DNA of 64,000 nucleotides from Escherichia coli (GTDB lineage: Bacteria; Pseudomonadota; Gammaproteobacteria; Enterobacterales; Enterobacteriaceae): assembly GCF_003018255.1 (NCBI RefSeq), contig NZ_CP027440.1, one strand, 5' to 3'. The notes under the pieces are model-generated. The model saw nothing but the letters and a program-made list of their open reading frames with translations. It was not told the origin of the DNA and made no database searches. Positions 32,866 through 53,179 of the stretch are shown here, piece after piece (position 1 is the first letter of the stretch; the number at the start of each line of letters is the position of its first letter). A program made the translations under genes and the position numbers.

Positions 32866-33330
32866 ATGGAAAAGAAATTACCCCGCATTAAAGCGCTGCT
32901 AACCCCCGGCGAAGTGGCAAAACGCAGCGGTGTGGCGGTATCGGCGCTGCATTTCTATGAAAGCAAAGGGTTGATTAGCAGTATCCGTAATAGTGGCAAT
33001 CAGCGGCGATATAAACGTGATGTGTTGCGATATGTCGCAATCATCAAAATTGCTCAGCGTATTGGCATTCCGCTGGCGACCATTCGTGAAGCATTTGGCG
33101 TGTTGCCCGAAGGGCATACATTAAGTGCGAAAGAGTGGAAACAGCTTTCGTCCCAATGGCGAGAAGAGTTGGATCGGCGCATTCATACCTTAGTGGCGCT
33201 GCGTGACGAGCTGGACGGATGTATTGGTTGTGGCTGCCTTTCGCGCAGTGATTGCCCATTGCGTAACCCGGGCGACCGCTTAGGAGAAGAAGGCACAGGC
33301 GCACGCTTGCTGGAAGATGAACAAAACTAA
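32866..33330 (+). CDS. soxR: MerR-family redox sensor SoxR ([2Fe-2S] cluster CIGCGC motif)
   Basis: 154 aa ORF recognised as SoxR. Confidence 0.95.
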
Positions 33331-33360
33331 AGCGCCACAAGGGCGCTTTAGTTTGTTTTC
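33329..33360. terminator. intrinsic terminator after soxR (AAAGCGCC-ACAA-GGGCGCTTT then T-rich)
   Basis: Inverted repeat overlapping soxR stop. Confidence 0.75.
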
Positions 33361-33470
33361 CGGTCTTTGTCTTTCTCTCTATCCCGCTGGTACACAGGAG
33401 GGTTTCCCCCGACGTCAACACACCTCATTCGAGCACGTGGTGGAGGTTCCGGTTGGTGTTGATGCTTTAA
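33330..33470 (-). ncRNA. possible RyjA-like small RNA locus (placement by synteny only)
   Basis: In K-12 as I recall, sRNA RyjA is encoded opposite to and just downstream of soxR; no sequence-level confirmation possible here. Confidence 0.3.
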
Positions 33471-33875
33471 TTGTATGTCACCGGCGTTTCTTCGCCAGTG
33501 TAAAAGTACACTTTTTAGCCGCAATATTTTTGTCATCTCAGACGATTTTTTATCGCAATCCTGAACGGTATACGGCTCGATAACGCTGCAATCTTGCGCA
33601 TCGACGATAACGTTTGCGCATCAATTGCCTGGTTTTTCATCGTCAAGACAATAAAAGAGAAAAAAGCAGCAAACTTCGGTTGAAAAAGCCGCTATGATCG
33701 CCGGATAATCGTTTGCTTTTTTTACCACCCGTTTTGTATGCGCGGAGCTAAACGTTTGCTTTTTTGCGACGCACCAATTTGTCGCAAACCTGGAGCAGGA
33801 AGATAACGTTTCGCTGGCAGGGGATTGTCCGCCACGCATCTTGACGAAAATTAAACTCTCAGGGGATGTTTTCTT

Positions 33876-35225
33876 ATGTCTACGCCATCAGCGCGTACCG
33901 GCGGTTCACTCGACGCCTGGTTTAAAATTTCACAACGTGGAAGCACTGTCCGTCAGGAAGTGGTTGCCGGGTTAACAACATTTCTGGCGATGGTCTACTC
34001 GGTTATCGTCGTTCCAGGCATGTTGGGTAAAGCAGGCTTCCCGCCTGCGGCAGTTTTCGTTGCGACCTGTCTGGTTGCCGGACTCGGTTCTATCGTGATG
34101 GGTCTGTGGGCTAATCTGCCGTTGGCGATTGGTTGCGCCATCTCCCTGACGGCGTTTACCGCATTCAGTCTGGTGCTGGGGCAACATATTAGCGTACCTG
34201 TCGCGCTGGGTGCCGTGTTCCTGATGGGTGTGCTGTTTACGGTCATTTCTGCCACGGGTATCCGTAGCTGGATTTTGCGCAACTTGCCGCACGGTGTGGC
34301 GCACGGCACGGGGATTGGTATCGGTCTGTTCCTGCTGCTGATTGCTGCTAATGGTGTCGGTCTGGTGATTAAAAACCCACTTGATGGTCTGCCCGTCGCG
34401 CTGGGGGATTTCACGACCTTTCCGGTGATGATGTCGTTGGTGGGGCTGGCAGTGATTATCGGCCTGGAAAAACTGAAAGTCCCTGGTGGCATTCTGCTGA
34501 CCATTATCGGTATCTCAATTGTCGGTTTGATCTTCGATCCTAACGTCCATTTCTCCGGCGTTTTCGCCATGCCTTCATTGAGCGATGAAAACGGCAATTC
34601 ACTAATTGGCAGCCTGGACATTATGGGCGCGCTGAATCCTGTAGTCCTGCCAAGCGTTCTGGCGCTGGTGATGACGGCAGTATTTGATGCCACCGGAACT
34701 ATCCGTGCCGTCGCCGGCCAGGCGAACCTGCTGGATAAAGATGGGCAGATCATCGACGGCGGGAAAGCACTGACCACTGACTCCATGAGCAGCGTTTTCT
34801 CTGGCCTGGTGGGTGCAGCTCCGGCAGCGGTATACATCGAGTCTGCGGCGGGTACGGCGGCGGGCGGTAAAACCGGTTTGACGGCTATCACCGTTGGCGT
34901 GCTGTTCCTGCTGATTCTGTTCCTCTCTCCGCTCTCTTACCTCGTTCCGGGGTATGCAACGGCTCCGGCGCTGATGTACGTTGGCCTGCTGATGCTGAGT
35001 AACGTGGCGAAAATCGACTTTGCTGATTTTGTTGATGCGATGGCGGGTCTGGTTACGGCGGTATTCATCGTGCTGACCTGTAACATCGTAACAGGCATCA
35101 TGATCGGCTTCGCGACTCTGGTGATTGGTCGTCTGGTTTCCGGCGAATGGCGCAAGTTGAACATCGGTACGGTCGTTATCGCTGTGGCGCTGGTGACCTT
35201 CTATGCGGGTGGCTGGGCTATCTAA
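33876..35225 (+). CDS. ghxP: guanine/hypoxanthine permease GhxP (NCS2 family)
   Basis: 449 aa polytopic membrane protein ORF recognised as YjcD/GhxP. Confidence 0.9.
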
Positions 35226-39145: not shown

Positions 39146-39420
<275 letters not shown>

Positions 39421-49840: not shown

Positions 49841-50240
49841 GCCGGGGATATCCACCCGGCAATATGTGGATGCCTGATGCGACGCTTACCGCGTCTTATC
49901 AGGCCTACGCCAGACTGCGCAATAGCTTGATTTAGGGTGATTTTGTAGGTCGGATAAGGCGTTTACGCCGCATCCGACATCAATATCTGATGCGACGCTT
50001 GCCGCGTCTTATCAGGCCTACGCCAGACTGCGCAATAGCTTGATTTAGGGTGATTTTGTAGGTCGGATAAGGCGTTTACGCCGCATCCGACATCAATATC
50101 TGATGCGACGCTTACCGCGTCTTATCAGGCCTACGCCAGACTGCGCAATAGCCTGATTTAGCGTGATTTTGTAGGTCGGATAAGGCGTTTACGCCGCATC
50201 CGACATCAATGCCTGATGCGACGCTTACCGCGTCTTATCA
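49841..50240. repeat. BIME array: about 3.5 tandem 113-bp units of paired REP elements between gltP and yjcO
   Basis: TGATGCGACGCTT recurs at 49875, 49988, 50101, 50214. Confidence 0.92.
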
Positions 50241-50248
50241 GGCCTACC

Positions 50249-51031: not shown

Positions 51032-53179
51032 TTACGCCAGTGCCGCTTCGCGCAGGCGAGTTTTCAACTTGTTGTACTCGTCAATCACGTACTGCTCGGC
51101 GGCGCGCTGATCGGCGATCGGCTCGACGCGCACGGCGCAGTATTTGTATTCCGGCGTTTTCGTAATCGGGCTTAAGTTTTCGGTCACCAGCTCGTTACAG
51201 GCACCAATCCACCACTGGTAGGTCATGTAAATCGCCCCTTTGTTCGGACGATCGCTGACCTGCGCACGGGTGATAATTTTGCCTTTACGCGAGTGCACCC
51301 AAACCAATGCCTCATCTTCAATACCCAGACGTTTGGCGTCTTCGGTATTGATTTGTGCGTAGCCAGGTTCATCAGCCAGCGCCGCCAGTGCCGCACAGTT
51401 ACCGGTCATCGAACGGCAAGAGTAGTGACCAACTTCACGCACCGTTGACAGTACCATCGGGTATTCGTCGGTGAGTTTGTCGATTGGCGCTACCCAGTCG
51501 CAGGTGAAGAACTGCGCCAGACCGTTCGGGGTATCAAACTTCTCTTTAAACAGATAAGAAGTCCCCTGATCGGCATCTGAAGTATCGCGGCAAGGCCACT
51601 GAATGAAGCCCAGTTCGCCCATTTTCTCGTAAGTCGCACCGTAGAAATCCGGGCACAGATGACGCAACTCGTCCCAGATCTCCTGGGTGTTGTTGTAGTG
51701 CATCGGATAACCCATACGAGTGGCAATTTCACTGATGATTTGCCAGTCCGTTTTCAGATCCCACTTCGGCTCAACCGCCTTGAAGAAACGCTGGAAGCCA
51801 CGGTCAGCCGCAGTAAACACGCCTTCATGCTCGCCCCACGACGTTGACGGTAAAATGACATCCGCCGCCGACGCGGTTTTGGTCATAAAGATGTCCTGAA
51901 CGATAACCAGTTCCAGATCTTCAAAGGCTTTACGTACTGCCGACAGTTCCGCGTCAGTTTGCAGCGGATCTTCGCCCATAATGTACGCCGCTCTCACTTC
52001 ACCATGCGCCACGCGGTGCGGCAGCTCGCTGATGCGATAGCCGGTATGAGCAGGCAGGCTTTCCACGCCCCAGGCTTTGGCGAATTTCTCGCGGTTAGCC
52101 GGATCTTTCACGTACTGATAGCCCGGATACGTATCCGGCAGCGCGCCCATATCGCAGGCACCCTGCACGTTGTTCTGACCACGAACCGGGTTTACACCCG
52201 CATGTGGCTTACCGAGGTTACCGGTCAGCATCGCGAGGCTGGTCAGAGAACGCACGGTTTCCACGCCCTGATAGAACTGGGTTACCCCCATGCCCCACAG
52301 GATGGCGGCGCTTTCTGCCTGGGCATACATCCGCGCCGCCTGACGAATCTCACTGGCGCTGACGCCGGTGATATCTTCAACCGACTCCGGCGTGTAGCCT
52401 TCAACGATTTTACGATACTCTTCAAAGCCTTCTGTACGGGAAGCGACGAACGCTTTGTCGTACAGATTTTCTTCAATAATGACATGGCCCATCGCATTCA
52501 ACAGCGCGATGTTCGAGCCGTTTTTCAATGCAATGTGCATGTCAGCAATGCGCGCGGTTTCAATTTTACGCGGATCGCAGACGATAATTTTCGCCCCGTT
52601 ACGTTTAGCGTTAATTACGTGATTCGCCACGATTGGGTGGGAATCCGCCGGGTTATACCCGAAAACGAACACTAAATCGGTATTATCAATTTCGTTAATA
52701 GCATTGCTCATTGCGCCATTACCGACCGATTGGTGCAGACCTGCAACCGATGGGCCGTGTCAGACACGAGCGCAGCAGTCAACGTTATTGGTACCAATAA
52801 CGGCGCGCGCAAATTTTTGCATTACATAGTTGGTTTCGTTACCCGTACCGCGCGAGGAGCCGGTCGTCTGGATGGCATCCGGACCGTACTTCTCTTTGAT
52901 GGCGCTCAGGCGCTCGGCAACGTAATTCAGTGCCTCATCCCAGGAAACAGGTTCGAGTTTGCCGCCACGCTGGCGACGGATCATGGGGGTTTTCAGGCGC
53001 GGGGTCAGGATCTGGGTATCGTTAATGAAGTCCCAGCCATAATAACCCTTCAGACACAGGGTACCCTGGTTGGTTTTCCCCTGCGCTGCCTCCGCCCGGA
53101 CGATTTTGCCGTTATCGACGACCAGGTTGATTTTGCAACCTGATGCGCAATAGGGGCAAACCGTGACGACTTTTTTCAT
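51032..53179 (-). CDS. fdhF: formate dehydrogenase H (selenoprotein; in-frame UGA at 52760-52762 decoded as selenocysteine, codon 140)
   Basis: ORF track splits gene into 139 aa (52760..53179) and 559 aa (51032..52711) pieces in the same frame; combined 715 codons matches FdhF. Confidence 0.93.
52715..52759 (-). other. SECIS stem-loop directly 3' of the fdhF UGA codon (mRNA: CACGGCCCAUCGGUUGCAGGUCUGCACCAAUCGGUCGG)
   Basis: Sequence read on minus strand matches the bacterial fdhF SECIS hairpin as I recall it. Confidence 0.85.

Follow-up and report, generated by a model that had tools for sequence, protein, structure and literature searches.

The DNA immediately downstream of soxR in Escherichia coli raises the question of whether the opposite strand there carries a gene for a small RNA and, if so, how that RNA would act. 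This question was examined in a window of 64,000 nucleotides (the whole stretch of DNA analysed; contig NZ_CP027440.1, RefSeq assembly GCF_003018255.1), for which a first-pass annotation had proposed, from the letters alone, that the small RNA RyjA is encoded opposite the soxR 3' end. Comparison of the window with Rfam bore out this placement. The best match of the whole window was to RF01408, "sraL Hfq binding RNA", on the minus strand at 33323-33463, where it covered model positions 1-142 of 142 with a score of 153.3 bits (E 1.1e-34; gathering score 39). Alignment with ryjA of K-12 MG1655 (b4459), which the first-pass annotation had suggested as a check, revealed identity at 141 of 141 positions; in K-12 the gene is an annotated ncRNA on the minus strand of NC_000913.3 (4277926-4278066) and overlaps the last 8 nt of soxR. 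We hold with high confidence that 33323-33463 is the gene of RyjA/SraL, a 141-nt non-coding RNA (nt 1 at 33463, nt 141 at 33323), a reading that takes in its promoter, its terminator and a proposed mechanism in trans. Nothing in the sequence comparisons contradicted the identification. The gene is already known, reportedly having been described in 2001, and has a curated Rfam family; the copy in the window is an ordinary one of the K-12 type.

The likeness to K-12 extends beyond the 141 nt of the RNA to its strand relation to soxR, its terminator, its -10 box and its neighbours, pdeC-soxS-soxR and ghxP-yjcE, which stand in the same order: pdeC, soxS (-), soxR (+), ryjA (-), ghxP, yjcE. Over the 251 nt aligned, the differences from K-12 lay outside the RNA. 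Three were substitutions in the 77 nt 5' of it (-21, -46 and -55), which left the -10 box unaltered, and three fell in the 3' coding part of soxR. The soxR coding sequence was placed at 32866-33330 on the plus strand from the list of open reading frames, the matches of SoxR to MerR families in Pfam and the RefSeq annotation of identical DNA. The two genes are convergent; the last 8 nt of soxR (33323-33330) overlap the 3' end of the sRNA, and the soxR stop codon TAA (33328-33330) lies within the 5' arm of the terminator hairpin. The site typical of sraL, directly downstream of soxR on the opposite strand, was occupied by the RNA in the window and in six homologous loci of other taxa. In the E. 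coli genomes shown, RefSeq/PGAP had only soxR under the ryjA match, and K-12 MG1655 had the sRNA annotated.

A single hairpin stands between the two convergent genes. The inverted repeat AAACTAAAGCGCC / GGCGCTTTAGTTT, the sole inverted repeat detected in 33300-33900, has arms of 13 nt at 33324-33336 and 33342-33354 that are 100% complementary, giving at 33324-33354 the 13-bp stem, 5-nt loop and U-run of the Rho-independent terminator of the sraL family. The folding energy was -22.2 kcal/mol on the plus strand (z -5.70) and -20.5 kcal/mol on the minus strand (z -5.75), and on each strand 0 of 200 dinucleotide shuffles folded as well. On the plus strand, the full 13-bp stem is followed by GTTTTCC and the inner 10-bp stem by TTTGTTTT; on the minus strand, the corresponding tails are TGTTCATCTT and TTTTGTTC. 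A consensus terminator scan called only the minus-strand terminator, the plus strand narrowly failing the T-count rule of the scan only when all 13 pairs are taken as stem. Because the hairpin is symmetric, the terminator portion of the sraL model also matched the plus strand weakly, at 23.7 bits. Since T-runs are present on both sides and folding is strong on both strands, the hairpin can terminate both the soxR (+) and the ryjA (-) transcripts. The earlier suggestion that a hairpin at 33329-33349 can act as a two-way terminator was well founded, that segment being the G+C-rich core of the perfect 13-bp stem.

Upstream of the RNA, the minus strand carries the -10 hexamer TACAAT at 33470-33475, followed by TAA. 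Counted from the 5' end annotated at 33463, this box occupies -12 to -7; the -35 region is a poor one. When five other species were aligned with the window (six genera or species in all), -11A, -9A, -7T, -6T and -5A were invariant. The interval proposed in the first-pass annotation, 33325-33475, can be refined to 33323-33463 for the RNA itself, which it covers while extending just as far as the promoter. A consensus scan for sigma-70 promoters called none at the ryjA start, as is expected for a promoter of the sigma-S type (PMC3753932). The sraL promoter has been described as being of this type, with a conserved -10 box, an A/T-rich discriminator and a degenerate -35 (PMC3753932). With its TACAAT-TAA, its degenerate -35 and the lack of a sigma-70 call, the promoter sequence in the window is compatible with sigma-S recognition. 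Transcription would start at 33463 under the control of TACAAT-TAA and a weak -35 and would end at 33323, at the hairpin that would also terminate soxR.

Published work on expression, mostly in Salmonella, fits a stationary-phase RNA. Salmonella SraL builds up in stationary phase and is nearly absent from an rpoS mutant; this dependence was established by Northern blot, lacZ fusion and ChIP, the sraL promoter being enriched more than 100-fold in RpoS ChIP (PMC3753932). Mutation of hfq lowers the level of SraL, which is also under the control of PNPase and polyadenylation (PMC3753932). In E. coli, RyjA is polyadenylated and ranks among the most up-regulated transcripts of a pcnB mutant (PMC5389530). 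By analogy, RNA polymerase containing RpoS would make RyjA on entry into stationary phase, Hfq would stabilise the RNA, and poly(A) polymerase and PNPase would destabilise it.

In all species examined, frames of 36-126 codons without a stop run across the RNA on both strands, which could be taken to mean that the conserved sequence encodes a small protein, in the ORF at 33317-33583 (+), 33348-33536 (-) or 33367-33462 (+). Stop codons are scarce in every frame of the region, and a stretch that lacks them is therefore not decisive as a test of coding. None of the three ORFs overlapping the interval had a Pfam match at E<=0.1, in contrast to SoxR, and the boundaries of the open stretches varied between species. 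The 38 substituted positions among the seven homologous sequences were spread over the codon phases as 11/15/12 (p=0.71) and clustered in hairpin loops. Further, a 1-nt deletion at alignment column 107 sets all homologues apart from the window, and the remaining indels measure 1, 2 and 8 nt. A small protein encoded here is accordingly a reading to which we give almost no credence. The first-pass annotation had judged that the interval lacks a protein-coding signal and that its ORFs are spurious; the absence of Pfam matches and of codon periodicity, together with the frame-breaking indels, upholds that judgement for the RyjA gene.

Within E. coli, the 141-nt RNA was found in 5420 of 5426 complete genomes and was at least 99% identical in 5400 of these 5420. 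When a 401-nt query that included the flanks was used, identity of at least 99% was retained in only 727 E. coli genomes. The difference between these counts indicates that the RNA is more constrained than its flanks. Departures from this pattern were few: 6 of the 5426 genomes were without a match, the match covered less than 80% of the query in 12, and three matches lay on plasmids. One interrupted copy was seen in strain 405, a urinary isolate (NZ_CM132948.1; positions 3001-3845 of the locus), in which the ryjA match extends only to nt 112 and is separated from soxR by an IS200C transposase gene, so that ryjA is split just ahead of the terminator hairpin.

Homologues in other taxa were sought with the 16-mer GNCGGGGGAAACCCNC (14 specified bases) over 298 Gb of genome contigs, which returned at least 120 loci, almost all of them chance matches in unrelated phyla. 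Among the matches listed were seven Enterobacteriaceae loci, six of which were true sraL loci. A Superficieibacter locus, which has neither sraL nor soxR nor ghxP, was rejected as a chance match. The six homologues come from E. albertii, Citrobacter werkmanii, Citrobacter sp. FP75, Enterobacter cloacae and Enterobacter spp. BIGb0383 and Bisph1, and each gave a full-length sraL match of 110-164 bits. In all six loci soxR is convergent beside sraL, and soxS and ghxP flank the pair as well wherever the DNA reaches far enough. Across the seven sequences, nt 51-67, 78-87, 89-104, 112-123 and 128-141 were invariant.

These comparisons bear on the simplest account of the interval, namely that it holds only the soxR terminator and non-functional intergenic DNA, without an RNA gene. 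Such an account agrees with RefSeq/PGAP annotation, in which soxR is the sole gene under the match for most E. coli genomes. However, a bare terminator would leave unexplained a full-length covariance-model match far above threshold, a curated ncRNA annotation in K-12, non-coding blocks of 10-17 nt that are invariant across genera, and an RNA that is better conserved in E. coli than its flanks. It is further opposed by a -10 box that is conserved and correctly spaced from the annotated 5' end and by published Northern blots (PMC3753932). We regard the absence of an RNA gene as extremely improbable and retain the identification as ryjA/sraL.

The fold of RyjA comprises four parts. Nucleotides 1-8 pair with 45-52 in a long-range 5' stem that encloses a small hairpin. 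Two central hairpins at nt 51-97 (33367-33413, -), drawn from the Rfam structure line and the consensus fold, contain the cross-genus invariant block GUCGGGGGAAACCCUCC. A purine-rich linker at nt 83-109 (33355-33381, -), UAGAGAGAAAGACAAAGACCGGAAAACA, is unpaired in the minimum free energy, Rfam and consensus structures, and the terminator occupies nt 110-140 and is followed by one U. The whole-molecule fold had a z of only -1.94. The consensus fold contains 36 pairs, none of them consistently broken among the homologues; 2 of the 36 were changed on both sides, one of them, in the 5' stem, from A-U to G-C. Evidence from covariation is thin because most pairs never vary.

Features of Hfq-binding RNAs were present in the sequence in the form of the terminator with its U-tail and the A/G-rich linker. 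An (ARN)x motif flanked by two stem-loops has been assigned to nt 84-117 of RyjA, in a group with OxyS, MgrR and ChiX (PMC5575007). An in-register test for at least four ARN triplets in 20 nt found none in RyjA, and the (ARN)x assignment therefore rests on that study, whose definition was apparently less strict, and on the evident abundance of A and G. OxyS, MgrR, ChiX/MicM and OhsC likewise have a purine-rich single-stranded stretch between stem-loops, which in RyjA are the central hairpins and the terminator. This likeness is one of architecture alone, without sequence homology and with other targets. Collectively, these observations suggest that linker nt 83-109 is probably a region of Hfq contact, a seed region or both.

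The documented targets of SraL are encoded elsewhere. In Salmonella, SraL has, close to its 5' end, a validated site of 7+3 bp for pairing with tig immediately ahead of the Shine-Dalgarno (SD) sequence, and it lowers tig mRNA about two-fold (PMC3753932). The regulation is backed by compensatory mutations and a gel shift (PMC3753932). SraL of Salmonella enterica serovar Typhimurium belongs to the same Rfam family and lies in the same place downstream of soxR, on the opposite strand, and the E. coli sequences also offer its 7+3-bp complementarity to the tig leader directly 5' of the SD (PMC3753932). The far neighbour differs, being the glutathione S-transferase gene STM4267 in Salmonella (PMC3753932) and ghxP in the window.

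A windowed, accessibility-corrected search for local duplexes with the K-12 tig 5' UTR placed the best predicted pairing at sRNA nt 25-34 (CACGUGCUCG; 33430-33439, -) with tig -29 to -19, again in 7+3 bp and with an optional extension in which CCUC pairs with the SD sequence GAGG. The duplex had an energy of -12.4 kcal/mol, as compared with -6.4 +/- 1.8 for dinucleotide-shuffled sRNAs, and one of 60 shuffles did as well. The predicted E. coli pairing agrees with the published Salmonella site and provides an imperfect complementarity to a trans-encoded mRNA at a regulatory position. For the rho leader, with which SraL is reported to pair over a putative rut site so as to reduce premature Rho-dependent termination (reviews PMC6582626, PMC12360218), the best predicted site was linker nt 83-106 against a C/U-rich stretch at -152 to -129, inside rhoL. 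This pairing is a prediction only and was not above chance, with 11 of 60 shuffles as good. Whole-molecule RNAduplex runs against the tig and rho leaders were set aside, as they gave unrealistic end-to-end duplexes matched by 36 of 200 and 194 of 200 shuffles, respectively. Exact complementary 7-mers were uninformative, at least one being expected by chance with P 0.7-0.9 (about 0.7 for the tig leader). No publication combining RyjA with RIL-seq came up in a literature search.

The experiments on tig, rho and RpoS were done in Salmonella, not E. coli. If the Salmonella findings carry over, RyjA would act in trans by imperfect base pairing. The region near its 5' end would pair just upstream of the tig Shine-Dalgarno and thereby yield less trigger-factor mRNA, and pairing with the rho leader over the putative rut site would lessen premature Rho-dependent termination and raise rho expression.

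Action in trans has to be weighed against the possibility that RyjA is additionally or mainly a cis-antisense partner of soxR, in which case duplexes between the transcripts, cleavage by RNase III or collision of polymerases could couple the expression of the two genes. The 3' ends of the convergent transcripts do overlap, the RNA ending at 33323 and the soxR stop codon lying within the hairpin, and the transcripts have in common about 30-36 nt of perfectly complementary 3' sequence in the form of the terminator. The convergent layout is kept in all six homologous loci. Further, SraL has been termed an 'antisense sRNA', although the same paper has soxR merely as a neighbour and no effect on soxR was found in the literature retrieved (PMC3753932). 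Against coupling, only 8 nt of the soxR coding sequence are overlapped, and the complementary part is held in a very stable hairpin in both RNAs. The coding overlap is not a conserved feature, since the end of soxR lies a few nt past the sRNA in some genera. Convergent genes often have one bidirectional terminator in common, an arrangement that needs no regulatory meaning. A cis-antisense role is, in our estimation, improbable. The term 'antisense' used in the first-pass annotation is thus apt as a description of position, RyjA being convergent with soxR, with which it has an 8-nt coding overlap and a common terminator; it does not describe the documented regulation of tig and rho, which takes place in trans (PMC3753932; PMC6582626).

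Several other elements were recorded in the window. Upstream of ghxP, a PurR-box-like sequence, ACGATAACGTTTGCGC, at 33604-33619 has three mismatches to ACGCAAACGTTTGCGT, and 0.61 such matches are expected per window; as a candidate PurR site, it would fit control of a guanine/hypoxanthine transporter by the purine repressor. The region upstream of ghxP also contains a sigma-70-like promoter, TTGAAA-18-GATAAT, at 33680-33709. Two direct-repeat pairs on AACGTTTGC link 33706-33722 with 33749-33765 and 33603-33615 with 33799-33811. A full-length Rfam SECIS_2 match on the minus strand at 52713-52767 (87.1 bits; gathering score 70) is presumably a selenocysteine insertion element inside a formate dehydrogenase gene. 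On the plus strand, eight Rfam naRNA4 matches of 62.7-79.8 bits, at 3885-3955, 8114-8184, 39160-39412 and 49948-50244, correspond to extragenic palindromes of the REP/BIME type, two of the sets being tandem clusters of three.

The practical value of these results is the confirmation that a real sRNA gene was placed correctly from sequence alone, at a locus where automatic RefSeq annotation omits ryjA in most E. coli genomes. For the sraL family, the distribution of conservation along the RNA bears on its targets. Conservation is low in the tig-pairing segment, one of the most variable parts of the RNA, and almost complete in the linker. In the Enterobacter sp. Bisph1 homologue (5986-6120), 8 nt of the tig-pairing segment are missing, and the central hairpin, linker and terminator are unaltered. 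This deletion hints that not all members of the family regulate tig. Given that the tig-pairing region is variable and, in Bisph1, partly deleted, the ancestral target of SraL, or its main one, may not be tig. Two bolder extensions can be framed, either of which we consider a long shot. The tail-to-tail layout might itself be functional, the hairpin and the complementary 3' ends of about 30-36 nt linking the superoxide regulator with the stationary-phase programme of RpoS by way of duplexes at the 3' ends or of altered termination or decay; or else linker nt 83-109, not the variable tig region, might be the principal seed, with further targets in E. coli. Conservation across genera is highest in the central hairpin and in the purine-rich linker and not at the tig site, which is a modest pointer to further targets of this RNA.
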